From a virus, in the IMG/VR virus record IMGVR_UViG_3300024265_000031: a DNA stretch of 64,000 nt; one strand, given 5' to 3'. The translations under genes and the position numbers were made by a program. Below the pieces are notes generated by a model. The model was given only the letters and a program-made list of their open reading frames with translations. It had not been told where the DNA came from and searched no databases. Shown piece by piece: positions 2,189-63,523 of this stretch (its first letter is position 1; the number at the start of each line of letters is the position of its first letter).

Positions 2189-2240
2189 TACTGTTCTCCT
2201 TTTTGTTTTTTATTTTCTCAGATAAAACATCTATTTTATC

Positions 2241-3221
2241 TTAGATTCGATATAATGGGCATTCTCTATTATTACTCCAAAGCCTATTTCGCCATTCTTT
2301 CATCTCTGAAGATAACCAAATATTGTTCAAGAAATCAATATCTCCTAAAAGATTTAGTTTGAATGTATTGTTTTCAGTAAATGAACAAGGGGAAACGTAT
2401 GCATCAACATTGATATAGATAGAAAACAATCCAGACTCGCAAGGTTCTGCATATATTTGAGCCATTGCTTCATGCTGTGTTCCCCTTACTGCATTCATAT
2501 ATTTATGAGCAGAACAAGAATCGAATCCCAGTGGAATATCCCATATTGCAGCCTTTTCAATAAGATTGTTGAATTCTTTTTGATTAAGTTGTGTATATTT
2601 ACTACCCCTTCCACATTTTTTCAAAGACAATAAAACAATTGCATTTATTTTTTTCTTTCTGCTATCTTCTATTTGTAGAAAATCATAGAGATTACTCAGC
2701 GTTTCTTTTGCAAGCATATAATGTACGTTCACTTGATTCAATCCCGCATCAGACAACATTTCAACAGCATTCAAACATACTGTATGATCATAATTGCTTA
2801 CAGCAATAGCTCCACAAAGATTAGCAAGATCTTTCGCTATCTTTGGCACTATCTGATATCCGTTGATAGTCAAATTAGGAACAACATTGTTCTCCCTGCA
2901 GTAATTAAAAATTTTTAACATATCTGGATTGCTATCAAGATCTCCTATTCCAAAAGCAATTTGAGTTATGGTGTCTGGCAATTTGACAAACACTTTTTGA
3001 AAAGTTTCTAGTGTCATATATCTGCCATATATTGTATTTGATTTATAACAGAATGAACATCCTTTATGACATATAGTAGAGATTTCAATATCTGCTATCT
3101 CTGGCCCTAACTCACACCATTGAGGATCTTCTTCTAATGTTTTACCCCATCGTGCCATAAACCCAGTTATTGGATTGAATATCATATTGTAATTTTTCGT
3201 GTGTATTTGTTTTGTTTTCAT
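2241..3221 (-). CDS. Radical SAM enzyme with C-terminal SPASM/twitch-like domain
   Basis: CHKGCSFCY (CxxxCxxC) motif; C-terminal PCESGLFSIYINVDAYVSPCSF...ECP. Confidence 0.9.
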   Translation of the reverse strand: MKTKQIHTKNYNMIFNPITGFMARWGKTLEEDPQWCELGPEIADIEISTICHKGCSFCYKSNTIYGRYMTLETFQKVFVKLPDTITQIAFGIGDLDSNPDMLKIFNYCRENNVVPNLTINGYQIVPKIAKDLANLCGAIAVSNYDHTVCLNAVEMLSDAGLNQVNVHYMLAKETLSNLYDFLQIEDSRKKKINAIVLLSLKKCGRGSKYTQLNQKEFNNLIEKAAIWDIPLGFDSCSAHKYMNAVRGTQHEAMAQIYAEPCESGLFSIYINVDAYVSPCSFTENNTFKLNLLGDIDFLNNIWLSSEMKEWRNRLWSNNRECPLYRI

Positions 3222-3226
3222 TTGTA

Positions 3227-3637
3227 TTATTCGCCCACGATTATATTGAATGTTTCCTCATTGTTCATGACGTTTAGAAAATTAATAAATGATTCATCAT
3301 GATAATCTATGTCTGCTTGCAAAATAATAAATCCTTCTTCTATTTTGGACTTGCATTTTTTATATGTCTTTCTATAATATTCTTCATCATCCAATATTTT
3401 TTCTAGGGTGTCAAACTTTCCCCAACAATGCTCATCAACAAAATATTTGTCTAGCTCTTTGACAGTTTTAATTTGTTCCATTTGATTAGACAATGCACTT
3501 AAGAATGTATCAGTAAAGGTCTTTAAAAATGGATATTTTTCTAGGGTTTCTTTATCAAATATCTCTGAAGATATTTTGGATGCAATCATGTAAGAGGAGG
3601 TAGAACTATTACTTACAAATCCTTGTCTAATTTTCAT
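3227..3637 (-). CDS. MKIRxGFVSNSSSSS-motif protein 4
   Basis: N-terminus MKIRQGFVSNSSTSSY. Confidence 0.85.
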   Translation of the reverse strand: MKIRQGFVSNSSTSSYMIASKISSEIFDKETLEKYPFLKTFTDTFLSALSNQMEQIKTVKELDKYFVDEHCWGKFDTLEKILDDEEYYRKTYKKCKSKIEEGFIILQADIDYHDESFINFLNVMNNEETFNIIVGE

Positions 3638-4107
3638 CCATCCCTCCAGCCCTCTTCATAATATGAAACATCTGAAACATCAAAATCTATATTGAATTGT
3701 TTTTTAATTTCTTCAACAACAATTTGGGGAATTTCTGAAATCTTTCTGTCTGGATATTCTTTTAAAAATGTTTCTGGCATAATGCCAACAAATCTTTCAT
3801 AGTCCCACGGCCCACCCTCTGTCAGATTACCTTTATTTTTTACTTCTTCATCGAATTCATTTTGAGCATATTCAATCTTTTCATCATTTGTTTCACATTG
3901 TTTTAATTCTGCGATATATTCTGGAAATCTTTTTTGCACATAGTCATTGTCAATTTCTTTGGATAATCTTTCTTCATATTCGCTTAATGCATCTTGAAAA
4001 ATTTTTAACCATACATTATCACTGATTTCTATTCTCTCAGATGAAACACCCCATGCCGCAAAACTACTTGTGCTACTGTTGGATACAAATCCATTTCGTA
4101 TTTTCAT
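3634..4107 (-). CDS. MKIRxGFVSNSSSSS-motif protein 3
   Basis: Start re-assigned to ATG at 4107; MKIRNGFVSNSSTSSF. Confidence 0.85.
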   Translation of the reverse strand: MKIRNGFVSNSSTSSFAAWGVSSERIEISDNVWLKIFQDALSEYEERLSKEIDNDYVQKRFPEYIAELKQCETNDEKIEYAQNEFDEEVKNKGNLTEGGPWDYERFVGIMPETFLKEYPDRKISEIPQIVVEEIKKQFNIDFDVSDVSYYEEGWRDG

Positions 4108-4108
4108 T

Positions 4109-4408
4109 TTATGAACTCCATTCCACACAATCCATATTGACACCTATTTTTTCTAAAAATAATTCCATATTGAAATTATCCATGAACACATTGCCCTCAA
4201 TCTTTCTAGAGGTTTCAGAAATATTCCAATTAAAATTGAGATTTCGATAATCGACATCGGGGTGAATTCCACATTCCGACCCAAATAATAAATCATCAAT
4301 TTCAATATGTTTTCTTATGAGTTGTAATTGAATATCAGTAAGCTTATTCTTACTAAGAACAAAACTTGAACTACTACTGTTACTTACAAAACCATTTCTA
4401 ATTTTCAT
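4109..4408 (-). CDS. MKIRxGFVSNSSSSS-motif protein 2
   Basis: MKIRNGFVSNSSSSSF. Confidence 0.85.
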   Translation of the reverse strand: MKIRNGFVSNSSSSSFVLSKNKLTDIQLQLIRKHIEIDDLLFGSECGIHPDVDYRNLNFNWNISETSRKIEGNVFMDNFNMELFLEKIGVNMDCVEWSS

Positions 4409-4417
4409 TTTATTTTC

Positions 4418-4965: not shown

Positions 4966-4980
4966 GATAAAACCTAGATT

Positions 4981-5235
4981 TTATATTATAAATGGTGGGA
5001 TTTCTAACCACCAAACATCATTGTATTTATTATAATCGATATCTTTGAGATCATATCCAAATGTAGAACTTCCAGACCATGCCTTTTCCATTACATATAT
5101 CATTCCATCAAGTTCTCTACAAGCGTATTTGCCCATCAACAATCTAATGATTGTACGAATTAAAAATGGTTTCTCTAAATACGCCCTTACAAAATCAGTG
5201 GCCCATCCTGAAAGAACAATACATTCACTTATCAT
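4981..5235 (-). CDS. hypothetical protein
   Basis: Probable ATG at 5235 (MISECIV...); stop TAA lies inside the palindrome at 4967-4984. Confidence 0.55.
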   Translation of the reverse strand: MISECIVLSGWATDFVRAYLEKPFLIRTIIRLLMGKYACRELDGMIYVMEKAWSGSSTFGYDLKDIDYNKYNDVWWLEIPPFII

Positions 5236-6849: not shown

Positions 6850-6925
6850 GAAGCAGGTAAAAGATTCGAACTTTTTACTAGTGGTTCAAAGCCACTTATG
6901 TTAAGCCAATTACACCAACCTGCCA
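6850..6925 (-). tRNA. tRNA-Gln(TTG)
   Basis: Anticodon arm AGTGG-CT-TTG-AA-CCACT; GTTCGAATC T-loop. Confidence 0.85.
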
Positions 6926-6928
6926 CAA

Positions 6929-7000
6929 TACTCCCACAGAGAATTGAACTCTGATCTGGACATTGAAAGTGTCCAATCCTGACCATTAGACGATGGGAGT
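6929..7000 (-). tRNA. tRNA-Glu(TTC)
   Basis: GGACA-CT-TTC-AA-TGTCC; cloverleaf. Confidence 0.9.
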
Positions 7001-7028
7001 ATTTTATCAACACTATATTGTTACTAAA

Positions 7029-7103
7029 TCTGGATGGGAAGATTTGAACTTCCGATTTCGCGCGTCCAAGGCGCGTATCTTAGCCTGACTCGATTACATC
7101 CAG
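7029..7103 (-). tRNA. tRNA-Pro(TGG)
   Basis: CGCGC-CT-TGG-AC-GCGCG. Confidence 0.9.
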
Positions 7104-7104
7104 T

Positions 7105-7300
7105 TATTCTGGCTTTCCACCAGATTGACAGTGTTATCATGAATTACTGTTTGTTGTCTTTTTCCAACTGTCAGGTTTAGTCAACAACTTTCCTTTGTCA
7201 CAGGCTCCTACATTTTTACTCAGGGACATATTATTGTTTGAGATTTACTGTCGATTTCATCTGTGTGTTTACCAAGCGAGACAAATACTTGGTCAGCCTT
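7105..7300 (-). ncRNA. Putative structured RNA between tRNA-Tyr and tRNA-Pro
   Basis: About 195 nt with no ORF of 60 aa or more, several complementary stems (ACCAAG/CTTGGT, GACAGT/ACTGTC, CTGG-TGGAAAG-CCAG). Confidence 0.45.
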
Positions 7301-7301
7301 G

Positions 7302-7383
7302 TGGATGCGAAAGGGCTCGAACCTATAATGCTTTACGCGCCTGATTTACAGTCAGGTTCCTTATCCATTTTGGATACACATCC
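7302..7383 (-). tRNA. tRNA-Tyr(GTA)
   Basis: CCTGA-CT-GTA-AA-TCAGG; long variable arm. Confidence 0.9.
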
Positions 7384-7390
7384 ATATCTG

Positions 7391-7477
7391 CGGAGAATGC
7401 TAGGATCGAACTAGCGCACCCAATTACGGATGACCTCAATTTAGCAAATTGGTGCTTTGCCACTCAGCCAATTCTCC
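7391..7477 (-). tRNA. tRNA-Ser(GCT)
   Basis: CAAT-TT-GCT-AA-ATTG; long variable arm. Confidence 0.88.
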
Positions 7478-7478
7478 A

Positions 7479-7565
7479 AGGAAGGTGGTGGGATTGAACC
7501 ACCGCACCCCGTTAAGGATGTCATCAGTTTTCAAGACTGCAGCATTACCACTCTGCCAACCTTCC
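7479..7565 (-). tRNA. tRNA-Ser(TGA)
   Basis: CAGT-CT-TGA-AA-ACTG; long variable arm. Confidence 0.88.
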
Positions 7566-9042
7566 AATAAATTGTTAAGGTGCTTTTCTAAATGTTATAA
7601 AAAATAAAAAATTTATACCCCAATATGTTTCCATGTGATGCCGTCTTGATGGGCTTATTGCAAATGAAAACAAAGAATGTTTTCCTAGTCTTAGAATATA
7701 TATTCGAAAAACTCCATATTCATAATTTATACTAAATAAATCAAAATTAAATGTTTTCAAATAAAATCTCCGTTTTATTCAATCACCAAGATATTTCTAT
7801 TGTTTCCATACTTTTTTTATATGATTCCTTAATAGCGGCTTGATATCCATGGTAAGCTAACCATTTAAGAATATCAATGGCATGCTTTTCATTCACAAGA
7901 ATATCAATACCACAATTTCCATTCTGGCATTTTTTTGTTATCTCTTGTGTAATCCTGTGTTTATATTTTTTTAAAACATCTTCAGATTCAATAATCTCGC
8001 GTGCTTCTTTTGCCATAATTAAATTATTCATATATTTTCTCCAGATAAAAATTCGTTTTATTCAAAACAATGGGCGGTGCAGGTATTATAATTTTACCAC
8101 ATCCCATACACCTTATAGCCACAGCAACAACCATAAACATAAATCCTTCTACTGTATGTCCACTATCTTTATTGCAATGGCGGCAAACAATAGGTGTTGA
8201 TTTTGATTGATATCCATATTGATTTTTATTGATTTGTAATTCCATTTTATTCTCCAGATAAAATATTCGTTTTATTCTGTTTTTATTTGATCTATTGCAC
8301 TACATAATTTCACAAACATATCACGAATCTCATAAATATCTTCAATACTATTTATAGCAAAAAGACAATCATTAAATTCTGATAATATTAAGTTTTCGCG
8401 TAAACGCAATTCTTTATTTTGTGTAACTTCAATATCTCCTCGAAGAGCAAATACTCGATTCCAATGATCACTAATAATATTCACATGTTTTATATGTACA
8501 TCTGTTATATTCAAAACATCAAGATCTATTTTTTCCATTTTATATTTTCCTTATTTCCAAATAAAAATTTGTTTTATTCGTAATACCAGCTTATTTGTAG
8601 TTTAATGGCATTACTTTCACAAGACACACTTCCACAATCTCTAGCACCATATTTTAACTTAACAAGATGCGATAAAATTCTTGAAACATTTTTTTGATGA
8701 ACACAAACATCAATTGAATATTCTCCATTTTGACAAGCTGTTGTAATAGCAGAGCTAACAATATTGAAATCTTTTTGAAAATCTTCATTTATTGCTGTAG
8801 CAATTTCTTGTGCTTGTTTTGCATTTATCATTTTTGTTTCCTTTATTTCTCTTTGGTGTTGTATAACTTGATCAAGAACTATTGTAGTAATAAGTTCGGG
8901 ATTTCTTTTTCCTAAATTTATAGCAGCACCAAGCCTTCTTGGTTCAAATACATCGATATGTAACCAATAAAAATCTTCTTGATCTCTGGAAATTTTTAAT
9001 TTATCCATTTTTTCTCCAAGATAAAACCTTCGTTTCATTTGA

Positions 9043-9119
9043 TGGGGTGACTGAGGAGATTTGAACTCCCAACTTCTGCATTCACAGTGCAGCGTTCCGC
9101 CAATTGAACTACAGCCACC
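9043..9119 (-). tRNA. tRNA-His(GTG)
   Basis: CTGCA-CT-GTG-AA-TGCAG; G-1 and encoded CCA. Confidence 0.92.
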
Positions 9120-10553: not shown

Positions 10554-11804
10554 TCATTGTGTTGTCAATATTTCTGTTCTAATCTTATCTAATATTTCTT
10601 CAATGTCCATATTCATCAATACCATATTTTGTATCTCTGCAATTGTAATATCTTCTCTTATATTAAATTCAATTTTAATTTCTTTATCAAAAAATTTGCT
10701 CAAAAAATCTTGTACCATTTCTCTAGTAGCATAACCAATTTCTACCTTCAAATCTATTCGACCTGGTCTAATAAGGGCAGAATCTAATTTTTCAACATGG
10801 TTAGTTGTAGATACTAAAATTCTTCCATGAGAAGAAAAAAATCCATCAATAGAATTCAAAATTCCAGATAAACCAATTTTATTTATATCATCAAACAAAC
10901 TATCTATTTCTTCTATTTCATTCTTGCCATTCTTTTTATTTGTTTTTTTCTTACGACTTTTTGTAAGATTGCTGGAATCAATGTCTTCGATAACAAGAAT
11001 AGCCCTATCAGGTAACTCGCTCACCGCACTTTCTATTTTCATTAAGCTTTGAGCCCCCAAATAAAAAATAGGATAGTTTAAATATGTTGCAATTGCTTTA
11101 ATCATGCTCGTTTTGCCAGTGCCAGGATGACCATGCAATAATATTCCCAATTGATAAGGTATTCCCATATCTATATACCAATCTTCTTTTTCAATAAATC
11201 TATCTAAACTATCAAATATTATTTTTTTCTTATTGCTCTCTAAAAAAACACTTTCGGGATTCCTTGAAGAAATATTTTTAACATAAGACCAATAAGAATG
11301 ATCCATTTTATATATTTCGATTCCCTCCTTTTGTGAAATCGAATCTGCATTTTTTACAAAACTTTTTAGAATATTTGAATTTCTTCCTAAACATGTTAGC
11401 TTCAAACTGTCTTTTTCATATTCAGTATTATTTGCGCTTTCTTTATCAATACGAACAATAATTATTCGTTTTTCATAAAGAATAAAATGAGTTCCATAAC
11501 CCATAGAAATAGTAATAGCTTTATCACCGCCATATCTTCCACTTGTAACTTTCAATCTTCTAAAATTTTTATCTCCATAATTATCTTGCAAAGTTTTTAA
11601 AATTTTATAATAAACAATATTGGCATTTGACATTTCAATATCGGTTGTAAAAAATCTTTTTATATTATTGATTATTGATAATGGAAGATCTTTAATCCAA
11701 AAAGTTATTATGCCAGCACCACTTAAACCAATAAGAGTTGTTAACAGTTGATTTTCCTCAATTTTTGCAATAATTGTTTCAATGATTTTTATAATGTCGT
11801 CCAA
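10554..11804 (-). CDS. BCS1-like AAA+ ATPase with N-terminal membrane anchor
   Basis: Walker A GHPGTGKT, Walker B VIEDID, LSGILNSIDG, TTNHVEKLDSALIRPGRID. Confidence 0.85.
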   Translation of the reverse strand: MDDIIKIIETIIAKIEENQLLTTLIGLSGAGIITFWIKDLPLSIINNIKRFFTTDIEMSNANIVYYKILKTLQDNYGDKNFRRLKVTSGRYGGDKAITISMGYGTHFILYEKRIIIVRIDKESANNTEYEKDSLKLTCLGRNSNILKSFVKNADSISQKEGIEIYKMDHSYWSYVKNISSRNPESVFLESNKKKIIFDSLDRFIEKEDWYIDMGIPYQLGILLHGHPGTGKTSMIKAIATYLNYPIFYLGAQSLMKIESAVSELPDRAILVIEDIDSSNLTKSRKKKTNKKNGKNEIEEIDSLFDDINKIGLSGILNSIDGFFSSHGRILVSTTNHVEKLDSALIRPGRIDLKVEIGYATREMVQDFLSKFFDKEIKIEFNIREDITIAEIQNMVLMNMDIEEILDKIRTEILTTQ

Positions 11805-15010: not shown

Positions 15011-15026
15011 TTGTTTAATCTCCTAG

Positions 15027-15099
15027 AGAGGGTGGTGAGATTCGGACTCACGGCTTCCAATTTGGAAGAATGGCACTCTACCAACTGAGTTACACCCTC
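15027..15099 (-). tRNA. tRNA-Gly(TCC)
   Basis: CCATT-CT-TCC-AA-ATTGG; atypical T-loop GTCCGAAT. Confidence 0.82.
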
Positions 15100-15102
15100 G
15101 CA

Positions 15103-15175
15103 CTCCCACGCCTTGATTCGAACAAGGAACTTCAGTGTTAACAGCACCGTACTCTGCCAGTTGAGTTACATGGGA
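15103..15175 (-). tRNA. tRNA-Asn(GTT)
   Basis: CGGTG-CT-GTT-AA-CACTG. Confidence 0.9.
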
Positions 15176-48438: not shown

Positions 48439-48481
48439 TTTATATATCTCCTTTATTTTCTAGTCTAATTTATCTTACTTA

Positions 48482-50278: not shown

Positions 50279-50307
50279 TTGACAAATTTCAAATTTTGTG
50301 GTAGAAT
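50279..50307 (+). promoter_or_regulatory. Plus-strand (antisense) sigma70-type promoter
   Basis: TTGACA-17-TAGAAT with TGTGG. Confidence 0.6.
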
Positions 50308-50997: not shown

Positions 50998-52194
50998 TTA
51001 TCCTAAATTCATGGGCATGATAACCATTGATCGTGAGTTTTCTTCTGTTGATATTAGAATAGGGTGATTGTGTGTGTTAGCTTCAATGCATACTGTTTCT
51101 CCAACCTGAACAACTTCTTTTAGGAACTTGTATTGAAATGCAATACACCAATGTTTTACCGCATCAAGAGTTTCATCTGATTCCTTCACTCTTTTTTCAC
51201 TTGTCAATTTTACCAATACGTTTTCTAAATTGCTATTTGTAACATAGAAGCCAGTATCCACTTCGCCCATTTCTTCTGATGTTGCATTCATGTTGCATAT
51301 ATTTAAAGTATCTCCATAAAAACCCAACTTGACCACACCCGTTCCTTCTGCAGCAATAACACCAGCTTCTTCGCATGCTTCAGCAATTTCCTTGGATGAT
51401 GCATTGAATGAAAATGTGCTTTCTTTAGGGTAAATAGCCATATAGTCAGGGTAATTGCCATCAATTTCTGCCAATACTAATTCTCCACCCTGCCATGTGA
51501 ATTTGAGTTGTCCTGGCTTATGATACATTGCAATTACCCCAACAGCATGCTTGAGATTGATTGCGCTTGGGCTAATAATGGTTTTGAATTCAGGTATCAG
51601 TATGCTATGTGGGTTGGAATCAACTTTAGCAATCCTAAATCCATCCGTTGCAGCTAACGTAACAGAATCCGATTCCATATTGGTAGTCAGAAGAACGCCC
51701 ATTAATACAGGTCGCGCTTCATCAGTACTAGCAACAGACTGAACATACTTGTAATCATTAAGAAATACTTCATTGTCAAAACTGGCTATGAGATCGTCAA
51801 ATTCTCCCATAGGTGGAAATTCGTCTGAATGAAGACCCTTTAGTGTATAGGTTGCTTTTCCTGCCTGTAGAGTAAGGTTGTACTCTGTTCTAGTGTATGT
51901 ATCTTCTCCTTCTCCATGTTTAGTTGTTTTTTCTTTATACCCAAATTTAACATCTTTTGCCTTGACTTTGCCAATCAATTTTTTCAGATTCACATAATCA
52001 ACACACACAGAAAATTCTTGATCTGTGGGATTATCAATCCACAACTTGAAATATGCTTCAAGATTGCTGGTTGTCAACGTAGTTGATTCTGGCGACACTT
52101 CAATCAGAACATGTGCCAGAACTGGCAATGTTGCTCTTTTGGAAACCGTACCGTTCAATTTTGTTAAAGCTTTCTTTAGTTCTGCAGTTTTCAT
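50998..52194 (-). CDS. dnaN: DNA polymerase III beta sliding clamp
   Basis: TLPVLAHVL, DEFP, STDEARPVLMGV, ATDGFRIA, GNYPDY, C-terminal MPM. Confidence 0.88.
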   Translation of the reverse strand: MKTAELKKALTKLNGTVSKRATLPVLAHVLIEVSPESTTLTTSNLEAYFKLWIDNPTDQEFSVCVDYVNLKKLIGKVKAKDVKFGYKEKTTKHGEGEDTYTRTEYNLTLQAGKATYTLKGLHSDEFPPMGEFDDLIASFDNEVFLNDYKYVQSVASTDEARPVLMGVLLTTNMESDSVTLAATDGFRIAKVDSNPHSILIPEFKTIISPSAINLKHAVGVIAMYHKPGQLKFTWQGGELVLAEIDGNYPDYMAIYPKESTFSFNASSKEIAEACEEAGVIAAEGTGVVKLGFYGDTLNICNMNATSEEMGEVDTGFYVTNSNLENVLVKLTSEKRVKESDETLDAVKHWCIAFQYKFLKEVVQVGETVCIEANTHNHPILISTEENSRSMVIMPMNLG

Positions 52195-52245
52195 TTGTTA
52201 TCTCCTAGTATAGTTTAAATAAAAGTGTTATTTTATCTTACCTTA

Positions 52246-52274
52246 ATTATAGCACATTTGACTGTGATTGTCAA
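52246..52274 (-). promoter_or_regulatory. Consensus sigma70 promoter for dnaN
   Basis: TTGACA-17-TATAAT. Confidence 0.8.
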
Positions 52275-55200
52275 GTCAATTTTGATTTCCATTTATAGGG
52301 AAATACTTTGGTTAGATAGTTCTTGTTATCTTTGAGATACCATTGATTCATAATAAAAATGGCTTCAAATGTTCCATCACTATGTTTCCAGCCACACAAG
52401 TATTTGCCTATTTTTTCAGGATAGACATCGCTTGCCCATTTCCATCCTTCCTCAATTGTTTCTGCCATATTTTTATTCTCTTGTTATCCAGATAAAAGCA
52501 TGATTTTATTTGAGACAATCAATTTTATTGTAACATATTTTGATAAGTCTCGTTGCTTCACCCCATGTCAGTTTTCCAATAACTCTTATGGATGTGCTAT
52601 TTTCCAAATGTACAATAATTTTATATCCTACATTATAATTGAGTCCCCTATAATCATTGTCAACTATTATGCTTAGAATATCTTTCTTTTTCAAAATTGA
52701 ATTTCCTATTCTGATATAGACGGAGTCTTTGCAGTCTACAATATCTTCATCCCACTCTCGATTATGGATTATCTCTCCCTTGTCTTTCAAACATTGTTTC
52801 AAATCACTTATTTCTATTTTTAGTTGATGATTCTGCAATTGCATTCTTTCTTCTTCTTTACGATTCATTTATTATTTCCTTGTATTCAACTCTTGTTCTA
52901 TCTGTGCTCCATATAATATATAGAAACGCGTCCATCCATTACAAATGGGTTTAGCTTGACTGTTATATACCCAACGATTAGGAGGGCTTTTCTTATAATA
53001 GCCATGCTTTTTACCGTACTCTTTAGCCAGCACAACTGCTTTGTGTTGTGATATTCCTATAGCCTTCAAGTATTCATATACAAATATTGCATCTATTTGT
53101 TTTGGCATTTTGTTTATTCTTCAATCTCTATATCTTTATTATGCAAACCATGACTTTTTAAAATTTCATGAACAACACGAAAAGATAGTGATTGTATCAT
53201 CCCAATTCTTACCTTTATTTTTCCCTCTCCAGCATAATATTTCTCATAAAAACCTATTTGAAAACCTGGATCAAACCCAGTTACTTTTATTGCGGACATT
53301 AAAGATTCTAATTTTTTAATATAGTCTTCATAGAAATCAATTCGTTCCATTTTTTCCATGTTTGGCATTTTTAATCTTATTGTTTCCATAATGTCTCCAG
53401 ATAAAACTGTTATTTTATTCAAACTACAAAATTTAAAAATTTAGAATGAGCCTTTTTTGGTATTGCAATCCAATCATTGAAATATTTCGTGTATTCTTCA
53501 ATGGTATCATGCATTCCATTGTCCATGCCAGGATCATTTATAAAATAAACAATGCAAGTTGTTGGGCTAGTTTTGAGTGCTATTTCATCTTCTGTTATTT
53601 CAAATTTTCCTGAAATTACACCGTCTCCATCAGTGATAATATATCCATCATCAATAAGATTATTGAATGTTTCTGCAATTCTAACGGCATTATTCCATCT
53701 TGCTTCATATATGTTCATTTTAGTTTCCATATTTCAATATATTTCTTGACATCTTCAGCTATTTTCCATGTCTCAATGTTTTCAAAGATATTTGGCCAGT
53801 CTTTCTTTTCCCAATCAAAAGGTTTGGGCATCATATAATTTTTATATTCAAAATATTGACTATCTATCATTCCATTTATTTTATGTTTTATATAGACAAT
53901 TAAATATTTATCAAAATCATTTTTGAAAATTATTGCAATTAGATTGTCTTTCATTTCATGATATAGCGATCTATTTATAGTTATTCCGCTTATATATTTT
54001 TCTAATGTATTCATAATGAAATACCCATTTTATTTAAGATTTCTAGTGGGGATGTCTACAACTAAAATGCTATGATCATACCATCCTTCTTTTCTTGGAT
54101 AAGTTGTTTCTGCCTTTTGATGTGTTTTAGAAAATGCAATATGTTCATTTTCAAACTCACCATATGTTACTACATGAACTACATCTACATCATACTCTCC
54201 CCACTCTTTACTTCTTTTTACAATATATGATATTGCGAATAACATAATTTTCTCCTTTTATCCAACATGATCTAGCATATAGCCAGTCCATTCATAATTC
54301 AATATGCATCGTTGGCCAAATACAAGCAGAGGAATATTGACAATTCCACAAAAAACATTCAATAAACACTCTACGAAATACATCCATAGCGGAATGGTTT
54401 TCGCCACTCCTGAAAACACCTTTAGGTCTGTTATTTTCATATTATTTGTTTTCCTTTTCTAAAGTCTTTTCTGCTTCATCAATATCAAACTCGTCAATAT
54501 ATTTTACCACATCCCAAAAATTATATCTTGGGTCAGGGGTAAGACTATAGGATCCAATTCTTTCAGTCCAAATATGTCCAAGTTTAGAGAAAAATCTTAT
54601 AAATATTTTATGATCGCACCATATTGTTATGGTGCTATCGAGATCAATTACGCTTTTGTCCTCATAATTATAAATCTTGTATTCTAATTTACTTATCATT
54701 TTTGGTGGTTTATTCATTGTGCCTCCTTCAATGAAATGTACGTTTTATCTATCCCATAATGCTTTTAATATCATCAGGACTCAAGCCAGCCATTAACAAT
54801 GTTGCCAAATTTTCATTACGCTCTCGTTCTTGATTGCCAGCCATTATTAGTAATCCCGCGACTACATCATCTTTTTTGGCATGGTTAGACTGTTTCATTT
54901 CCCTTGCCATAGCACCCATTAATATGACCATAGCATTAGGATTGTTTGGGTCATCCCACCTACATCCAGCTTCACGTTCTGCTCTTTCAATTAAATTAGT
55001 TGCATTATTCATTGTATTTCTCCTTATTCAATTGGATCTAAATCTCTTTGTACCATTTCCCATTGTGAATTAGCAACTAAAGCATTGGGTAGATCAAGCT
55101 GGTGTTCAAATCCAGGCGTGCATTTAATCAACATCCATTCTCTATCTTCTTCGCTCATTTCGTTCCATTTCTTTTTGCTGATCTCAACTATTACTGTTGC

Positions 55201-57846
55201 TTTTGCTAAAATAATTGTGTCCATTGATTCTCCTTGTATCTTATTATAAGTATATCAGATTACATATGTTATGTCAAGATAAAATGACGATTTTATTGAA
55301 TCTCATCAACCCTTTTTATTGTCTTGCAATTTTTTGCAATCATAAAACTTTTAATATAAACGCTGCCATTATCTGGTTGAGAAGAATTAGACCTAAGTGA
55401 ATTGTTATCAATACCTAGAGGAATTGCATTGCCAGAATATATTGCATTTATACCATCTTGAAGATATTTTCCACTTATTGCTTCGCATTCACAATGTCTG
55501 GTTTTCATTCTTAGACCAAAAATATCTTTGCACCTTCTACAATATAATAATTTCATTTTACAACTCTAATTCCCTTTGAGAGTGTTCTTATCATTTTTCC
55601 AAACCACCATAGTTGCATAAATCCCAATTTTCTGTTGAATGGCAATAAGAACAAATTTGTAATGCCACAAAAAATGTCAATTAAATTACCAATGGCTTGC
55701 ATCCATTTTGGAACTTCATTCAATCTTGTTATTTTAAGAGGGTAGGGGATCATATTATTCTCCAAATAAAATAGTTGTTTTATCTGTGCCAATCAGATCA
55801 GTTACACTTATTGTATCTGTTGGTATTTTGTTTTCAACATATTTCAGCATTTCTTCTGTTATTTCAAATTCCAACACTGGTACTTCATAAATTTCAATTA
55901 TACTACCAGGATATTGTTTATTTAATATCTTCAATACCATTCTGATATCTCGCACTGAACCTTTTCTTAAATGTTCTTTTGCTGTTGATGGTGTTAAAAA
56001 CATATGGTGTTCAAAAATAAGCGGATTACTAAATCCTTCTAAGCCTTTACGTCTAATAATTGTTACTGTCCTAGTTGCATTATGTTTTTCTCTATAGTTC
56101 ATAGTATTATGTATATATTCTTATATACTTCTCCTTTACGTATATCGAAATATGGGAAAATTATACACATGGAATTTCTGGCAATATGGCAGATATCCAT
56201 AAACCACTATTTTTGCTTTTGTTATGTGGATAGAAAAAATGTCCTTCTCTTACAAATGATATCTCATTATTCCCTTGCCACCCACGTACTAAACACAGAG
56301 ATGGCTTTTCTCCAGCGTATTCTTGTCCATACCACCAATAAATTCCTGGTTTAGTAGGTATTTTTTTTGACCATGTATTCATATTTCTCCTAGATAAAAC
56401 AATTTTTTACCTAATATTTTCTAATTCTAACAGCCTGTTATTTATCCAACGTCTTCTTTTTGGCGAACAAGCATACCTTTCTGACTCTAAAGATTTTTTT
56501 TCTCCCTTTAATGATTCATGTAACAAAAAATTGAATGCCAACGGATAATTTTTTAGAAATTTTTGCCAAGCATTATAAGACACGTATTTTATTTGCATTT
56601 ATATATCCTTCCAGATAAAATCAATCTTTTATTTAACATACATTAAATCTATAGCTACAGATAAATCAAAAGTTTCTTCAAACCAACGCCAAATATCTTC
56701 TCTGGGTGTTCCTGGCTCAAACTCCAAAACCCACTCTTCGATTTTTTCATCATCGTTAATTGGAATATCGCCCAATAATTGCCAAAGTTCTTTTGCTTCC
56801 TCTAATTTATTCATGTTGTTCTCCTAAGATAAAATGGATCTTTTATTTGGGATACATTTCCATTGCGTGAATTTGAATACATGAAGTGCCTTTTTTTACA
56901 TGTTCCATAACACCATCAATTTGACCCCTTTCATACAAATATTCTTCTGCAACTGCATGATTAATTTGTTTGATTTGACATCCAGTTCTTGAACAATCAA
57001 TTATAAATACTGGCAAACCTTCTCCATGTTTTTTAATAAGGTGATTGACAACGCTTTTTAATTCACCTAAAGTCATTGTTATGTCTTCAACTTTCATGTT
57101 GTTCTCCTTCAAATGAAATAAACCTTTTATTCAGTATATCCAAAATCTTGAACATATCCAAAAAACATATCACGCGGATCTCCTGCTCGTTCAATTTTTG
57201 AAATAAGAAATCTTGCTGTTTTTCCACTTTCCATTTTTGCTCTTAACTCATCACCAATGCTAGGGATGGGTGTCATATGTCCTGTTATGCGTCTTGAGTT
57301 CCAATCAGAAAAATATATTGAGTTTCCCCAACCGCTATGGTTACTCATATTTATAATTGTTCCAGTTAGTGGTGGTCGTCTAACTTTCTTTTTGAAAATT
57401 TTATTAAGTAATTTCATTTTTATCTCCTTCAGATAAAATAGACCTTTTATTTCCAGCGATATTCTACTGACTGGCAACTAATCCATAGCGGAATAATTCC
57501 CAATAGAAAATATCCGTGCCATTTGCGTTCTACAAAATTGCCAAACGACTTTATTTTTGTCTTTCTTTCTGTTATCCATATATTTTTTATAATCATAGTA
57601 TTTTTCTCAATAAAACAGACATTTCATTTAAAAATTCTTTAAATTTTTATATGTTTCTTTTACATATCCATAACTACTCATAACATTTTCCATAGCCACA
57701 TAATGCAAAGTGCTTATGGGAATGTCTTGGTCAGTATCTAATGCTCCACAATATAAAAGTTTCTTAACTTCATTGGCAAATTTTTCTGTTATTTGTGCTA
57801 AAAATCTTTCCATGTGTATTGAGTCTAGGTATTCTTTTCTGTTCAT
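52271..57846 (-). other. Array of small hypothetical ORFs separated by the palindrome
   Basis: About 19 ORFs of 60-120 aa. Confidence 0.75.
55249..55277 (-). promoter_or_regulatory. sigma70-type promoter
   Basis: TTGACA-17-TATACT, adjacent to the palindrome at 55279. Confidence 0.7.
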
Positions 57847-57870
57847 ATGTATTTTCCTTGTTTGATTTTA

Positions 57871-57895
57871 TGTGGAGGGATTTGCACCCTCCACA
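57871..57895 (-). other. GC-rich hairpin (terminator or processing signal)
   Basis: TGTGGAGGG-TGCAAAT-CCCTCCACA downstream of the 57906 gene. Confidence 0.55.
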
Positions 57896-57905
57896 CAAAC
57901 TAAAA

Positions 57906-58295
57906 TTATCCTAGCCTGTCAAGCATTTCTTCCAATTCCTCCATTGTCTTACCTTCCAACGCAGCATCTTGCTTTGATGCCATGATTGCCATAATTTTTT
58001 GCTTTTGTTCTCGTCTTTCTTTTGCTAGAAGGCGTGTTGCTGTTTCCTCCTGTTTTACTGTTACAACATGCTTGACAACCTCAATTCTGAGTGCCAATTC
58101 CCTATCTTCTTTTGTCTGCTTATCAAGCAAGCTTTCCTCATTGGCGCGTCTCAGTTGGGAATTAAGAGACTTGAAAATTCCATCCAAATTTTCAACGGAC
58201 AAATCCCACAAATCTTCCGTTGAGATTGATCCCAAGTAAGGAAATCGTGCTTTTGATCGTGTTGCTACTTCAAATATATTCTGTTTTTTTGCCAT
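57906..58295 (-). CDS. Conserved phage hypothetical protein (coiled-coil)
   Basis: NIFEVATR..RFP...EDLWDL; adjacent to the 680-aa gene. Confidence 0.7.
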   Translation of the reverse strand: MAKKQNIFEVATRSKARFPYLGSISTEDLWDLSVENLDGIFKSLNSQLRRANEESLLDKQTKEDRELALRIEVVKHVVTVKQEETATRLLAKERREQKQKIMAIMASKQDAALEGKTMEELEEMLDRLG

Positions 58296-58310
58296 TTTTT
58301 GTATTCTCCT

Positions 58311-60353
58311 TTAGAATCGTACTTTGATTACTCTTTCTGATTGACCCTTTACTTTGACTACTAGTTCATTTCTTCTGGTTGACGAAAATCCAACACCAGA
58401 TAACTGATCGTTAACATCTTTTACTGCCATTCTTCCGCCTAATGCTTCAAATACTCTCTTATGTCTTAATAAATCCTCCTTTAAGAATTCATTGTAGAAC
58501 CCGTTTGGATTTTCTGTATTGACACAATCTTTTAACATGAACAGGTAGTGCCTGTTGCCAATTCCACTCTGCTCATCCCAATAGTTAGGTGAGAACATTA
58601 CTACAGATACAGGAATAAACTGATTTGTTTTCAATCCCCATGCTTCTCTGGAAGATACATTTGAAGGTAGTTTTTCCTTGATTGTAAAACCTTCCTCATT
58701 TAATGTAACTTCTGCTACTTGAACCCTTTCATTTTGTCTTAGTTCTTCACCATAGTCAAATGAGAATATTTGTCCGTCATATTCTATTTCTGCTCTAAAA
58801 CCCTCTCTTCCGCCGCGATTAGCAAACTGAAGAACAAAAAATTTATAAACACCTGATTCCATTTGATCTTTGTTGATCCAAGTGATGTTTTCAACCGCAA
58901 CAGTATTTGGTTTTGGACGTTGTATGTCAACATCAAGTCTTCCGCTTGTTGATAAATTTCTTAGATTTCTAAAGAAAATTTCATTTCCTCCAGGTTCAAT
59001 ACAGTGTGCATCTAAATCATTTTTATCATGATCTCCTGCGTCATTCCATTGAATTGAAAACCTGAGAATACCTTCAACATTGCCACCAGCAGATTTTACT
59101 CTTTTTTTCATAGAACTGTCTGTTATGTTGCCAGAATAAGCCCAACTGAATGCATTATTCCATTTAAACATTGTTGGAGAATCGCCATTTTCTGGAGCGA
59201 TCAAAGATACAAGATTTGGCGAATGCTTATTCTCAAAGAAAACTTCAATTTCTTGTGCCGTAGGAAGTACACCAGAAACAAAATCCTCTATAGAAACTTC
59301 CTCAATTTTTGAAAACTTTTTTGGGTTGATGGAGACATCTACAATCATTTCTTCAAAAACATCTTCGCCACTGATTCTTCTAGATGCATCTCTATTTGAA
59401 AACAGTATATTGTTAACGGTAATGTTATCAAGCTTTGCATAACGCCTGTTTAAAGACTTTAAATATCCAAGTTCTTCAACTGTCTTTTTGGCTTCTTCTA
59501 ACATCTTCTTGGTGAAAATAGCCTTTGGCCGTTTGTAGTTTGATGGTGCTACAATAACTTCATACTTCTTTACCGCAACATCTAAATCCATATCTTCACT
59601 AACATTGATAAGCAGAGTACCAATACTATGATTTCTAATCCTTCCAATTGCCATGCCAGCTTTAACAGACTGTTCCCAAGCATAGTTTTCTTCTTGTTCT
59701 TGGGTTTGCAACTTGTCATAGGATTTTTTCAATTTTAAGAATTGTGTTAATACGCCTTTCCACTCTTCTCCCTTGTATAAAGAGTTTTGAGCAATCAGTT
59801 CCAGGATGGTTTCAATGCTATCTCTTGTAATCTCGTCCAACGACCTCTTGAACACATTCTTTGTGGCTTCGTATGATCCTCTAATATCCCCCAATGTTCG
59901 TCCTGTATTATTGACAAATTTGTCTGGTAAATCCAAAAAGAAATGATGCCATTCAATAATCTTTCCATCATCATCCTCAAAGTTCTTGTCTGTTCCCATC
60001 TTTTTTACTTTGCTGAGATGGATGCCAGCAATAATTTTAGATTTTATATATGTGTTCAATGCATCAATAACAGGCTGATATCTTGAGTTGTTGGTATCAA
60101 AATCCCAAATTGTCTTTACTTGGTTGTTATGAATGGCAACTACACCACCCATAGTCTTAATGAAGTGTCTACAACAAGAGCAATCATGATCTCTCCTCTC
60201 TCTGTAGACTTCATTTGTACCTGGAGCAAAGCTATCTAGATAAAGATTCCACATCTCATCTTTATCTAACTCAACTTCAAATAGATGGGTTGAATTTTTT
60301 GTTGTTTGTTCGAAATTCTTTTGAAATAAATTTTTGAATTCTTTAAATTCCAT
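58311..60353 (-). CDS. Large conserved phage protein, N-terminal CxCC motif and C-terminal YfaP/DUF2135-like motifs
   Basis: HDCSCCRHFIK; DLDAHCIEP, LDVD, VENI. Confidence 0.6.
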   Translation of the reverse strand: MEFKEFKNLFQKNFEQTTKNSTHLFEVELDKDEMWNLYLDSFAPGTNEVYRERRDHDCSCCRHFIKTMGGVVAIHNNQVKTIWDFDTNNSRYQPVIDALNTYIKSKIIAGIHLSKVKKMGTDKNFEDDDGKIIEWHHFFLDLPDKFVNNTGRTLGDIRGSYEATKNVFKRSLDEITRDSIETILELIAQNSLYKGEEWKGVLTQFLKLKKSYDKLQTQEQEENYAWEQSVKAGMAIGRIRNHSIGTLLINVSEDMDLDVAVKKYEVIVAPSNYKRPKAIFTKKMLEEAKKTVEELGYLKSLNRRYAKLDNITVNNILFSNRDASRRISGEDVFEEMIVDVSINPKKFSKIEEVSIEDFVSGVLPTAQEIEVFFENKHSPNLVSLIAPENGDSPTMFKWNNAFSWAYSGNITDSSMKKRVKSAGGNVEGILRFSIQWNDAGDHDKNDLDAHCIEPGGNEIFFRNLRNLSTSGRLDVDIQRPKPNTVAVENITWINKDQMESGVYKFFVLQFANRGGREGFRAEIEYDGQIFSFDYGEELRQNERVQVAEVTLNEEGFTIKEKLPSNVSSREAWGLKTNQFIPVSVVMFSPNYWDEQSGIGNRHYLFMLKDCVNTENPNGFYNEFLKEDLLRHKRVFEALGGRMAVKDVNDQLSGVGFSSTRRNELVVKVKGQSERVIKVRF

Positions 60354-60373
60354 TTGTTTCTCCTTGTTTTATA

Positions 60374-60402
60374 ATTGTATCAGATTTGATTTGTTATGTC
60401 AA
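60374..60402 (-). promoter_or_regulatory. sigma70-type promoter
   Basis: TTGACA-17-TACAAT. Confidence 0.7.
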
Positions 60403-61415
60403 GTTTTATTTATAATCATCATATATTTTTTGTAAGTGTGGATGTAGCTTCTTTTTGTATCCCAACCAATACCATTGCAAATTGCGATAAAGCTTTATAA
60501 TCCACCACCTATTGATTTTCTCATCAAAGTGTGTATAAAACCAATCCCATGAAAAAATTGCTTCAGAACTGTCTTCCCAATTGAATACTTTTCTTGTAGC
60601 TTCCCAATCTATAGTATAAAACCCTCCATCCTCATCCCAATAGGCTACGTTTTCAGGTAAACAATTTTTACATACATAAGTATCACGCAATGGTCTTTCA
60701 TATTCATCGTTGGGATCTAAGCAATGTTCTGCCGTATTTGTAAATCTTCTTTTTTCGCCTAGCGTAAGTACCTGCTTACATTTTGGACAACGATTTTTAA
60801 GTTTTGTGTGTAAGTTGTTAATTCTCATTGCATATTCCTTTCAGATAAAATTAGTCTTTTATTTGTCAAATTTATCATTTAATTTTTCCATTACCATCTG
60901 CAAAATCTCTTCTTTTTTCAATACCATCCTAGTATTCATTCTTACATTTTGTCCTAAAATATGTCGAGCAGTACTAATAATGTCAGGTATTTTCTTTTTG
61001 TTCTCACATTCTTTTAGTTTCTGCAAGATTAAATATATGCCATCCATCAAATGTTCATGTCGTTCTACCATATTATTCTTTTTATGTTCAGAAATTATTA
61101 GCTTACCTGTTGTTATTTTAAGTTTCTTTTTTAGCACTTCATTTTCTTTTTGTAGGGTTTTTGTTTTCAACCACATAATATTTTCCTTTCAAGATAAAAT
61201 TGTCGTTTTATTTTAGTCTTTCGTTTGTGCTGGAATTTCTTCTGCCTTGATTACATGAAAATCTTGGCAGTCTTCCTTTCCATCTAGTTCTCCCGCTAAA
61301 ACTTTATCAATTGCGCTAGATATATCAATTGCTTCAACTTCATAATAGAATTCCACCACTTGTTCTGCTATTATTTTGAATTTCATTTTATTCTCCTTGT
61401 ATATTTTGTTATTCA

Positions 61416-61488
61416 AGCCCGTAGTAGGATTTGAACCTACATTCTCCTATTTCGAAGATAGTTGCTGATCCAGTTTAGCTATACGGGC
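61416..61488 (-). tRNA. tRNA-Arg(TCG)
   Basis: CTAT-CT-TCG-AA-ATAG. Confidence 0.85.
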
Positions 61489-61490
61489 AA

Positions 61491-61565
61491 AGTCCGTGAC
61501 AGGATTCGAACCTGCATAACTTTCTCCTTAGAAGGGAGATGTTCATCCTCTTGAACTACACGGAC
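61491..61565 (-). tRNA. tRNA-Arg(TCT)
   Basis: TCTCC-CT-TCT-AA-GGAGA. Confidence 0.88.
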
Positions 61566-61571
61566 GTTAGA

Positions 61572-61646
61572 TGCGCCTGGGAGGATTTGAACCTCGCGAC
61601 TCTTGGCTTAAAAGGCCACTACTCTACCAGACTGAGTTACAGGCGC
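61572..61646 (-). tRNA. tRNA-Lys(TTT)
   Basis: TGGC-CT-TTT-AA-GCCA. Confidence 0.88.
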
Positions 61647-62397
61647 AAATGAAATGGTCATTTTATTGGTAACATTCTCGTTTATCAAGACTTGTGCTTT
61701 CAAGAGAAATTCTTCTGGGATCTTCTTTGTTGATATCATCCCAAATTAAAAGCTGTAGTTCACCATCAAACACTTCAAGAGTGACAAGAATGTTTTGGTT
61801 TGTAAAAGTACCATACCCATCAGCAGAAATATCTATGCCGTCACCATTGCTTCCAATTACCATTTTTATTCTTACTTCTTTGGGTGTTATCTCATCTTTC
61901 AAAATTTCTTCAGTCCATTTTGCCATGTTATTCTCCTAATGCATCCAAGCATTGTTCAAGCGCTTTTGGATCACTTTGTTCTAAGTACTCTCTAATATGT
62001 GGTGTGAGTATGATTACTTTCAATGCCTTTACCATGTTGTTGCGCCTTATTGGATGTTCAATTGCCGTTACTTCTTCCATCGTATAAGGATTTTTATTAC
62101 CAGAAATCCAATTGCGTTCTATATAATTTTTTGCACATTGCTGGTTTACCAATGTTGCTACTGGTTGGCCTAATTTTTTTACTATAACCATTTTATTTTC
62201 CTTTTTAGTTATGTTATCCTTTCAAAATCTTCTGTTATTATTATGTTTGATTCTTGTGACCTGGGATCAAACCACATTGGTTGCATATCGCGCTCTTCAA
62301 TTTCTTCAGCAATAGAATCTCTAGTTCCCTCCCAATCTATTCTATATAAGTCTATCAAGTTATTTTCTATACTCCAATTCATTTTATCTCCATTGTT

Positions 62398-62426
62398 ATT
62401 GTAGCATACCTCAAGGCGAATGTCAA
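62398..62426 (-). promoter_or_regulatory. sigma70-type promoter
   Basis: TTGACA-17-TACAAT. Confidence 0.7.
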
Positions 62427-63523
62427 GTAAAAATGGTGTTGTGATAAAATCTAGCTTTCATCTATGGATTTTGCATTTTGAAAATCTTGAAACATACAGT
62501 GATTGAATTTTTGATTCAACATTTTTTCAATGTTCTCATCTGTTATGATTGTTTCAAGTTTATATAATACTAATCTTGTTTGAGGCAAACATTTTTTTAT
62601 TTCTTTAAATGTTTGTTTTGCTTTATCTTCATCAAAATAATAATGTGTGTTTAGAGTTCCCGTTATCCAATATATTGTTTTTTTCATTATTATCCTTCGC
62701 TATGCCCACCCATACTAATAGCCATAAGATTAGAAATTGTTCCATCCCTATCTAATCCATCTGTATAATCCACATATCCACATCTTTTATCTGTGGGTGT
62801 CATCAATGCCCATTCGCATTCACTGAACAATTCTTTATACATTGCTTCAACTTCTGATTCTGTGGGATCAACTTTACCTGGATAGTCAGAGTCAAAATAC
62901 TCACCACAATTCTGACAAAACATATCGCAACCGTCTTCATTTTCTCCTTTTTCATCCTCATATAAATCGAAAAGGTGTTGTGCATCAGCATCAATATCAT
63001 CATGATACCAATGTGCTTCACAATTAGGACAAAGCGTATATGGTTCTTTGTTATTTTGATATTCTGATTGCATTTTTATTCTCATGTTATCCTCCAAACC
63101 TAGTTGGGTGTGTCTGAATGGGTTTGCCCAATTTCCAATTGAGCAAATCAATTTGGTCACCATTAGAAATATATTCTTGTTCTACTCGTGTTAATGTATC
63201 AAAAGGGTCTTCATCGTTTGTGCCACAAAATGAATCACCCATTATCTCTTCAATTTCTTGTTGTCTAGCCAAAAGTTGTTCAAGCTTTTCTTTATCTGAC
63301 ATAAAATGCTCCTTTTATCTGGAATATTGAGTATTGGAAGTTGCAACAACTAAATGAATATAGTCACACGTATCGCATGTTTGGTTTCCATTTGTTGGGT
63401 TGTAATTTTCCAATTGTAATTCTAAACATTTTGGACACGCCCACGCATATTCATCCTCGCCGTTATATTTTCCTACTTGAATTAATTCTGCTGTTTTCAT
63501 TTTATTCTCCTAGTCTACATTCA

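Follow-up and report, generated by a model that had tools for sequence, protein, structure and literature searches.

The 64,000-nucleotide (nt) stretch of virus record IMGVR_UViG_3300024265_000031 analyzed here (the window) is part of an ~150-kb contig assembled from one subsurface metagenome and is studded with a short palindromic site, ATAAAA-N6-TTTTAT, which mostly lies between genes and whose 6-bp center (spacer) is not repeated. Our preferred explanation, to which we assign a rough probability of 0.55, is that these are double-stranded DNA core sites of a phage-encoded Xer/Cre-type tyrosine recombinase, i.e., heterospecific recombination sites for the slot-by-slot exchange of gene cassettes. 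We demonstrate the motif, its placement and symmetry, the uniqueness of its spacers, an intact tyrosine recombinase, and, in SPbeta-type phages, footprints of exchange at this motif, and from these we infer that the Xer-like recombinase of this phage binds and cuts the sites and that exchange takes place in this phage.

Site array and spacer uniqueness

The exact N6 form occurs 48 times in the window, between positions 2222 and 63318, whereas 0.18 copies are expected from dinucleotide-preserving shuffles, the largest shuffle holding 2. The exact form with an N5 spacer is present in 6 copies (0.19 expected), and N4, N7, and N8 forms are absent from the window, the spacer being 6 bp long in all but the six N5 copies. 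N6 copies with one mismatch number 19 (~3.5 expected), and 14 of these alter the same palindromic position, 8 in the left arm (ATGAAA-N6-TTTTAT) and 6 in the right arm (ATAAAA-N6-TTTCAT). The 48 exact N6 copies, the 6 exact N5 copies, and the 14 single half-site variants constitute the set of 68 sites (pattern ATRAAA-N5/6-TTTYAT) used below. A previous annotation of this DNA made from its letters alone (the sequence-only reading) had arrived at similar figures, about 50 exact and about 15 near copies, with a chance expectation of about 0.2 copies per spacer length.

On the coding strand, the 48 exact sites read A (38/48), R (47/48), ATAAAA, a center nearly without conserved letters, TTTTAT, Y (45/48), and T (35/48), usually followed by GGAGA and a start codon. 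The inverted arms thus reach 8 bp (A-R-ATAAAA and TTTTAT-Y-T), past which conservation ends; the site spans 18 to 22 bp, and its full-arm form is written AGATAAAA-N6-TTTTATCT. Inverted arms around a fixed 6-bp center have the geometry of tyrosine recombinase core sites (overlap of 6 to 8 bp), a resemblance to which the sequence-only reading had rightly drawn attention. The flanking positions R and Y vary independently, and a half-site variant is found in either half (8 left, 6 right). This combination of symmetric arms and independent flank variation fits half-site recognition on duplex DNA.

By identical-protein look-ups, the genome was walked 25 kb beyond the window, and 88,958 nt of coding strand were assembled. 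This 89 kb contains 90 sites, or about one per kilobase, the outermost being 6 kb past the window end on one side and 9.8 kb outside window position 1 on the other. Among its 82 N6 spacers there are no repeats in either orientation, although 4.96 are expected from the position-specific composition (P = 0.008), and over four genomes there are none against 8.3 expected (P = 0.0004). Spacer pairs differing by at most one letter number 19 instead of the expected 46, and no spacer is palindromic. If sites with like spacers can recombine, a genome should hold no two sites with the same spacer, and this prediction held; operator, hairpin, and promoter models do not predict such nonrepetition.

All genes of the window are on the minus strand, as judged from the GC skew and the list of open reading frames (ORFs); the placement counts that follow come from a rough, simple gene caller. 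Sixty of the 68 sites are intergenic. The TAA stop codon of the preceding gene lies within the left arm at 27 of these 60 and abuts the arm at another 15 (42/60 together), and the next start codon follows the right arm by 10 to 17 nt at 34. The layout between two sites is therefore right arm, ribosome-binding site (RBS), ORF, stop codon, and left arm, and 30 of the 67 inter-site units contain exactly one gene. Viewed from the genes, 54 of 141 junctions bear a site. Of the 87 that do not, 53 have fewer than 12 nt between the genes, which leaves no room for one, and ~60% of the junctions with a gap of at least 12 nt hold a site. The features to which we refer are listed below; sites are given without a strand.

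2222-63318: site array of 68 sites, running on past both window ends
8258-8275: typical exact site; the left arm holds the TAA of gene 8272-8538 (minus strand), and CTGGAGA and the next ATG come after the right arm
22069-36685, minus strand: sugar-modification operon of overlapping or abutting genes, with no intergenic sites
28612-28629: exact site within gene 28025-28876 of the sugar-modification operon; no other exact site lies in a long gene
4967-4984: exact site, with a promoter-like TTGACA-N17-TATGAT directly after it
55279-55296: exact site directly upstream of a sigma-A-type promoter, TTGACA-17-TATACT (55277-55249), and not in the downstream 5' untranslated region (UTR)
9021-9038: ATGAAA-arm variant, 4 nt past the 3' end of tRNA-His (9043-9118) and followed by an RBS and a start codon
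19983-20000: exact site ending 2 nt before tRNA-Trp (19905-19981)
61649-61666: TTTCAT-arm variant adjoining tRNA-Lys (61570-61647)
48482-48510, minus strand: strong extended -10 sigma-A-type promoter, one of about six in the 41- to 61-kb region

The sugar-modification (glycosylation) operon is free of intergenic sites because it offers no intergenic room. Its description in the sequence-only reading as devoid of sites is correct for the gene junctions but not for the operon as a whole, in view of the exact site at 28612-28629. The same reading had placed the sites at gene boundaries, with the upstream TAA in the first arm and an RBS and start codon after the second, and had described the units as mostly promoterless mini-genes, all of which agrees with the counts above and with the scarcity of promoters. 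Strong sigma-A-type promoters are ~4 to 5 times rarer than sites, those of the 41- to 61-kb region beginning, besides the one listed, at 52274, 60402, 55277, and 45305 on the coding strand. Only one terminator-like hairpin, on the noncoding strand, was found at positions 41001 to 61000, where 7.4 are expected. With few promoters and one terminator-like hairpin, most units are promoterless and read through; the scarcity of terminators and of perfect extended -10 promoters implies very long read-through transcripts, and the approximately six strong promoters presumably drive the read-through of the promoterless units.

The accessory array is interspersed with 14 tRNA genes (6850-7565, 9043-9118, 15026-15175, 19905-19981, 36725-36800, and 61416-61647). 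Several of them are directly bounded by sites, as if tRNA genes were units as well. The site next to tRNA-Trp shows that a site need not accompany a translation start.

Copies of the right-arm variant TTTCAT cluster by region: most of those in the window are at 54 to 62 kb (54016 to 61666), and in the 5-kb stretch past the window end (L077:382-5150) each of the seven sites carries it, one of them together with ATGAAA. In the early region of SPbeta, the right arm is TTTTAA instead. Such arm subtypes may mark the origin of a cassette or a second recombinase specificity.

Recombinase, exchange footprints, and relatives

No recombinase gene was detected within the 64-kb window by tblastn, in agreement with the sequence-only reading, which had proposed that the sites be mapped past the window and that a tyrosine recombinase be sought elsewhere in the genome, and which had named the lack of such an enzyme as evidence against exchange. 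The extended assembly that yielded the 90 sites also contains an intact Xer-like tyrosine recombinase of 292 amino acids, encoded 10.4 to 11.3 kb beyond window position 1 (L080:2484-3362), so the genome does not lack one. It consists of Phage_int_SAM_1 (PF02899) and Phage_integrase (PF00589) domains and aligns end to end with XerA (5hxy, E value of 4.6e-29), a Pyrococcus XerC-like protein (4a8e), and Escherichia coli XerD (1a0p), the E values ranging from 5e-29 to 2e-26. The full catalytic set (Arg, Lys, His-x-x-Arg, His, and Tyr) is retained. The protein has the SAM_1 core-binding domain and is without an arm-binding domain, suggesting that it should act on simple sites. Its gene is located ~600 bp past the last site, downstream of the array and in the same orientation, and is immediately followed by a replication module (AAA_24, primase-helicase, PD-(D/E)XK, and Pol III alpha).

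Exchange footprints were obtained by comparing the early regions of seven SPbeta-like phages (SPbeta, Goe13, phi3T, SPbetaL8, SPbetaL4, SPbetaL2, and SPR). The order of the spacers is constant in all seven (TGTAAG, GATGCA, GTAAAA, TTGAAG, AGACTG, GATAGT, TATTTA, ACGATA, and GTAATT). In 151 pairwise comparisons at shared spacers, which like the other pairwise statistics of this family are not independent of one another, both 40-bp flanks were unrelated in 59 and one flank was unrelated in 54. Ends of homology blocks fell within the site ± 6 bp in 30% of the cases, compared with 2.1% for random positions, with block starts concentrated at the left site edge and block ends at the right edge. Variants of the right arm cosegregate with the right flank (P = 8e-6) and not with the left flank (P = 0.13), and variants of the left arm cosegregate with the left flank (P = 0.02) and not with the right flank (P = 1.0). 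This linkage places the exchange point between the arms, in the spacer or at its edges. Swaps that break at the sites, which the sequence-only reading had suggested looking for in related genomes, are thus seen in SPbeta-type phages. That reading had also considered a promiscuous, Tn916-like joining of unlike spacers, which is at odds with the lack of spacer repeats within the genome and with the common spacer order of the SPbeta family. Spacers that are unrepeated in each genome and fixed at each junction instead point to exchange that would be limited to sites with the same spacer.

Laboratory recombinants provide a further comparison. Dragos et al. (bioRxiv 10.1101/2020.05.06.055103) listed 17 junctions of laboratory phi3Ts x SPbeta recombinants in their Supplementary Table 1. 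We placed these junctions from the table coordinates, calibrating chromosome to record positions by the mtbP homology block (coordinate sum, 2,286,447.5) and checking the calibration with junction 7. The sole junction classified as "nonhomologous," N1, has its SPbeta side at record position 116,414, the first base of the site ATAAAA-TATTCC-TTTTAT (116414-116431), and its phi3Ts side at 107,382, 13 nt short of a site that likewise has TATTCC as its spacer (107396-107413). Junction 7, with "30 bp" of homology according to the table, corresponds to a 27-bp identity made up of the site ATAAAA-TGCATA-TTTTAA and a few flanking bases. The remaining junctions of the table lie within 0.4 to 20 kb of homology.

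Besides MrpR, SPbeta encodes two uncharacterized tyrosine recombinases, yomM in the tail module and yopP next to mrpR. Two copies of the motif were labeled "stem_loop" in the SPbeta record of 1999 (record positions 2622-2651 and 116406-116431). Our literature search retrieved no published description of the motif or of the function of yomM or yopP.

Close relatives of the subsurface phage are lacking among the records searched: a 20-kb megablast query found nothing similar among 50,697 phage records, and in a search of sequencing runs the phage was found only in its source run, with no RNA run among the matches. When 5.8 billion protein sequences were searched, the best identity was 73%, for the 680-amino-acid DUF8224 marker protein (58311-60353), which is 64% identical to proteins of Bacillus myophages and 66% to 73% identical to proteins of uncultured contigs. 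These best named matches of the marker had suggested a Herelleviridae/SPO1-like identity, which was rejected; the Bacillus myophages in question have neither the motif nor a PF00589 gene. Exact copies of the motif were counted in the following records.

G001, 112 kb: 32 exact copies
G004, 349 kb: 23 exact copies
G002, 131 kb: 20 exact copies
SPbeta, 134 kb: 13 exact copies (control, 1)
G008, 158 kb: 10 exact copies
G003, 154 kb: 7 exact copies
BCP78, Bcp1, and ~20 other contigs: 0 to 1 exact copies

PF00589 genes are present in seven of eight motif-rich records and in 6 of 25 motif-poor ones (Fisher P = 0.0026). The DUF8224 core marker is 66% identical in G001, yet only ~18 ORFs of the window have a homologue in G001 or G002, indicating a very fast turnover of the array. 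Spacers common to any two of the window genome, G001, G002, and SPbeta number 0 to 4 per pair, which is the chance level, so the "addresses" are not conserved at that distance. Terminase, tail proteins, a YomM-like recombinase, and the YonO RNA polymerase are common to G001 and SPbeta, which makes the clade of relatives SPbeta-like and not SPO1-like. Only three ORFs of the assembled 89 kb have an SPbeta homologue; the SPbeta-like kinship of this genome itself therefore rests on its relatives and on its replication module. A comparison of G003 with G004 proved uninformative, the two being the same phage (99.999% identity over 153,891 bp). The 154-kb G003 (IMG/VR) is contained in the 349-kb G004, which is therefore either the G003 phage joined to other DNA, from the host or from a second phage, or a chimeric assembly.

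Within the window, a gene has been duplicated, with copy 1 at 42132-42380 and copy 2 at 42859-43017 (91% identity over 175 nt). The homology starts at the right arm of the upstream site, and both the spacers (TGAAT and CCAACG) and the upstream DNA differ. This pair is the only local hint that exchange may have occurred in this phage. Its boundaries are as follows.

42118-42135: exact site, 3' boundary of copy 1
42391-42407: N5 variant site with spacer TGAAT, 5' boundary of copy 1
43028-43045: exact site, 5' boundary of copy 2, the sequence upstream of which is unrelated to that of copy 1

Some other genes of the window were assigned as well. An adenylosuccinate synthetase-like gene (1118-2188, minus strand) has its best PHROG match in a family whose annotation is the PurZ-type enzyme known from 2-aminoadenine phages, and directly after it is an IMP dehydrogenase gene (2-1117, minus strand) that is cut by the window edge. 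Were 2-aminoadenine to stand in for A in this phage, the A-rich site arms would differ chemically in virion DNA. A radical SAM/SPASM-domain enzyme is encoded at 2241-3221, beside several small genes. The larger genes within the array are the following.

10554-11804: BCS1-like AAA ATPase
40257-41243: RlaP-type nucleotidyltransferase
47407-48438: DUF932 protein
50998-52194: DNA polymerase III beta clamp

Proposed exchange and alternative explanations

In the mechanism that we favor, two recombinase monomers would bind the invariant inverted arms (A-R-ATAAAA and TTTTAT-Y-T), and strands would be exchanged across the 6-bp center. A private center at each junction would make the sites of one genome mutually inert, sparing it deletion and inversion, while the same junction in a coinfecting or resident relative could pair and recombine. 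Two crossovers would then swap the unit between the addressed sites (right arm, RBS, ORF or tRNA, stop codon, and left arm), and the array would be transcribed by long read-through from a few sigma-A promoters.

Several points weigh against this proposal. No gain, loss, or swap at a site was seen in this phage itself, for which the closest marker identity is 73%, and the evidence for exchange comes from SPbeta-type phages, which are distant, although they have the motif and some modules in common with the relatives of this phage. In those phages, linkage mapping cannot separate site-specific exchange from short-homology recombination within 15 to 18 identical bases. In the laboratory cross, the phi3Ts coordinate of N1 is 13 nt off the site, and the joint is known from coordinates only. 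The co-occurrence test is small, and its records are phylogenetically nonindependent. The recombinases of motif-bearing phages are mutually only 21% to 40% identical, a divergence at which a single cognate family is not established, and we pair recombinase and motif by inference. Finally, the six exact N5 copies would probably be poor substrates for a recombinase whose overlap length is fixed.

The main rival explanation, which we hold to be unlikely, is that the sites bind a dimeric protein not engaged in recombination (operator, roadblock, architectural, or MrpR-like) and that the mosaic ends arise by annealing-protein recombination at the conserved 18 to 30 bp, the sole shared sequence. Symmetric half-sites without covariation would be expected of such a protein, and the arm-flank linkage test cannot tell this model from the recombinase model. 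An AAA_24 (Sak4-type) protein is encoded next to the recombinase, and there are precedents for both parts of the model: SPbeta MrpR is an inactive tyrosine recombinase fold used as a repressor (PMC10516654), and PeSL-mediated shuffling has been proposed for T4-type phages (PMC2839356). However, while the invariant arms are explained in this way, the unique, junction-specific spacers are not. A regulator needs no spacers that never repeat (P = 0.0004), nor spacers that stay fixed at a junction while both flanks change. Sites at ~60% of the junctions with a gap of at least 12 nt are far commoner than promoters, and 18 bp is very short for homology-driven exchange. In addition, the SPBRE element bound by MrpR differs in sequence from the motif, and the recombinase of this phage, unlike MrpR, retains all of its catalytic residues.

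Considerably less probable is that a site-specific nuclease or nickase cuts at the sites and that its breaks prompt repair from a coinfecting relative and thereby gene conversion of neighboring cassettes. A palindrome with a fixed spacer would suit a dimeric endonuclease, HNH genes do occur in these phages, and exchange footprints as well as laboratory junctions at the sites would be predicted. Ninety self-targets would nevertheless be costly to the phage, the unique spacers kept at each junction would be left unexplained, and the genes that co-occur with the motif are those of tyrosine recombinases and not of any candidate nuclease.

An RNA hairpin in a polycistronic mRNA, acting in processing, stability, or translational control of the downstream gene, appears very improbable. 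Its attraction is the position of the sites just 5' of the RBS at most junctions, together with the occurrence of both N5 and N6 loops and the "stem_loop" labels given to two copies by the SPbeta annotators. The 6-bp A-U stem, however, averages -0.38 kcal/mol, and the arms are invariant without covariation, the seventh pair being A/C in 15, A/T in 13, G/T in 11, and G/C in 5 of the 48 sites, as expected for independence. The mid-stem A.C variant TTTCAT (6 copies) is about as common as the G.U variant (8 copies), and every one of the seven sites in the first 5 kb past the window end has this A.C-type arm. Furthermore, the sites upstream of promoters (4967 and 55279) and those abutting tRNA genes (19983 and 61649) are not in a 5' UTR, showing that the sites are not elements of the leader of the downstream gene. 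An operator and an RNA hairpin were the alternatives that the sequence-only reading had itself offered, and both are weakened by the data.

That a phage sigma factor or a YonO-type RNA polymerase uses the sites as promoters or as promoter-proximal activator sites, giving each small gene a start of its own, is hardly credible, even though a site precedes nearly every free-standing gene and some tRNA genes and a homologue of YonO is encoded by G001: from a perfect palindrome, transcription would run both ways, and an RBS 2 to 3 nt past the right arm leaves no room between a -10 element and a start that would keep the RBS in the transcript. YonO transcribes the SPbeta late genes from a single mapped start (PMC5467207), at ~60450, where there is no copy of the motif (nearest copies, record positions 57147 and 61158), yet copies occur inside the late operon, and the sites are therefore not YonO promoters.

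Returning to the recombinase reading, we propose only tentatively, with odds slightly short of even, that a large clade of Firmicute phages extending from this subsurface phage to SPbeta runs a natural cassette exchange based on an Xer-like recombinase, dozens to ~100 sites, and private 6-bp addresses. If so, related phages would trade single accessory genes, such as anti-defense genes and tRNAs, slot by slot with gene order kept, which would explain the fixed variable slots of anti-defense and other accessory genes in these phages. It would also constitute a dedicated enzymatic route to gene-boundary mosaicism, so far ascribed to illegitimate or homology-driven recombination plus selection. 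The question of phage mosaics with joints at gene boundaries is as old as the modular theory of phage evolution, and an addressed-site recombinase would be a concrete and genetically testable answer to it, SPbeta and phi3T being tractable in Bacillus subtilis. For the window, such a system would account for an ~80-kb, ~150-gene accessory array that shares almost nothing with its nearest relatives, and its sites could become ready-made orthogonal recombination sites for genome engineering.

Comparison with known systems

Among natural systems, the PeSL elements of T4-type phages, in which a sigma-70 promoter is combined with a terminator stem-loop and recombination proceeds through homology from copy to copy (Arbiol et al. 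2010, PMC2839356), resemble the sites described here in being short repeats between small nonessential early genes of a large phage, where they bound insertions, deletions, and replacements. The sites of this phage differ in sharing only 12 to 16 bp and in having copy-specific centers. They contain no promoter and form no stable hairpin, and terminator-like hairpins are scarce around them (the one against 7.4 expected).

In SPbeta, MrpR (YopR), a tyrosine recombinase fold without catalytic residues, binds SPBRE elements (PMC10516654), i.e., a recombinase-fold protein of an SPbeta-type phage acts on a short repeat at many intergenic places. SPBRE is, however, another sequence, found at about ten promoters, and the recombinase of the subsurface phage is catalytically complete. 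We considered and rejected an identity of the sites with the MrpR/SPBRE operator: MrpR-bound SPbeta promoters have in common AAATACAAAAAATATGTATA, which is unrelated to the motif, and ten MrpR peaks from chromatin affinity purification sequencing (ChAP-seq) are at SPBRE promoters and not at the 13 exact SPbeta copies of the motif.

The plasmid dif (pdif) modules of Acinetobacter are flanked by Xer-type sites with a 6-bp center that delimit discrete gene modules of different replicons (PMC6449649). Many Xer-type sites with a 6-bp center in accessory regions would be the common feature. A pdif site is nevertheless 28 bp long, with distinct XerC and XerD arms of 11 bp each, and is used by the host XerCD, whereas the sites described here have two identical 8-bp arms, a putative phage-encoded recombinase, mostly single small genes between them, and a unique center at each junction. 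The comparison covered pdif sites and not the dif site of the host.

The likeness to integrons, the analogy drawn in the sequence-only reading, lies in promoterless single-gene units bounded by putative recombination sites and in the probable involvement of a tyrosine recombinase. Integrons comprise an IntI integrase, attI, and attC sites, and their arrays of mostly promoterless single-gene cassettes are read from upstream promoters. The analogy did not hold, as an IntI-type integrase, attI, and long folded attC sites are all missing. The recombinase has XerA/XerD-like motif spacing without the extra IntI segment, and IntI4 (2a3v) matched only residues 196 to 283. There is no attI beside its gene, and compared with attC sites (imperfect palindromes of ~55 to 140 nt), the sites are 18 to 22 bp long, with a hairpin of about -0.4 kcal/mol and no longer inverted repeat around them. 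The spacer pattern is that of positional exchange and not of capture at one site.

In engineered cassette exchange with heterospecific lox or FRT sites, Cre or Flp acts on sites that have the same arms and an asymmetric center that sets the pairing; unlike centers are inert toward each other, and two unlike sites permit a swap. This is how the system proposed here would most closely work, as its natural counterpart. The engineered version is man-made and uses two or three spacer variants between 13-bp arms, whereas the phage genome carries ~90 natural sites with 8-bp arms and 6-bp centers, distributed over ~80 kb.

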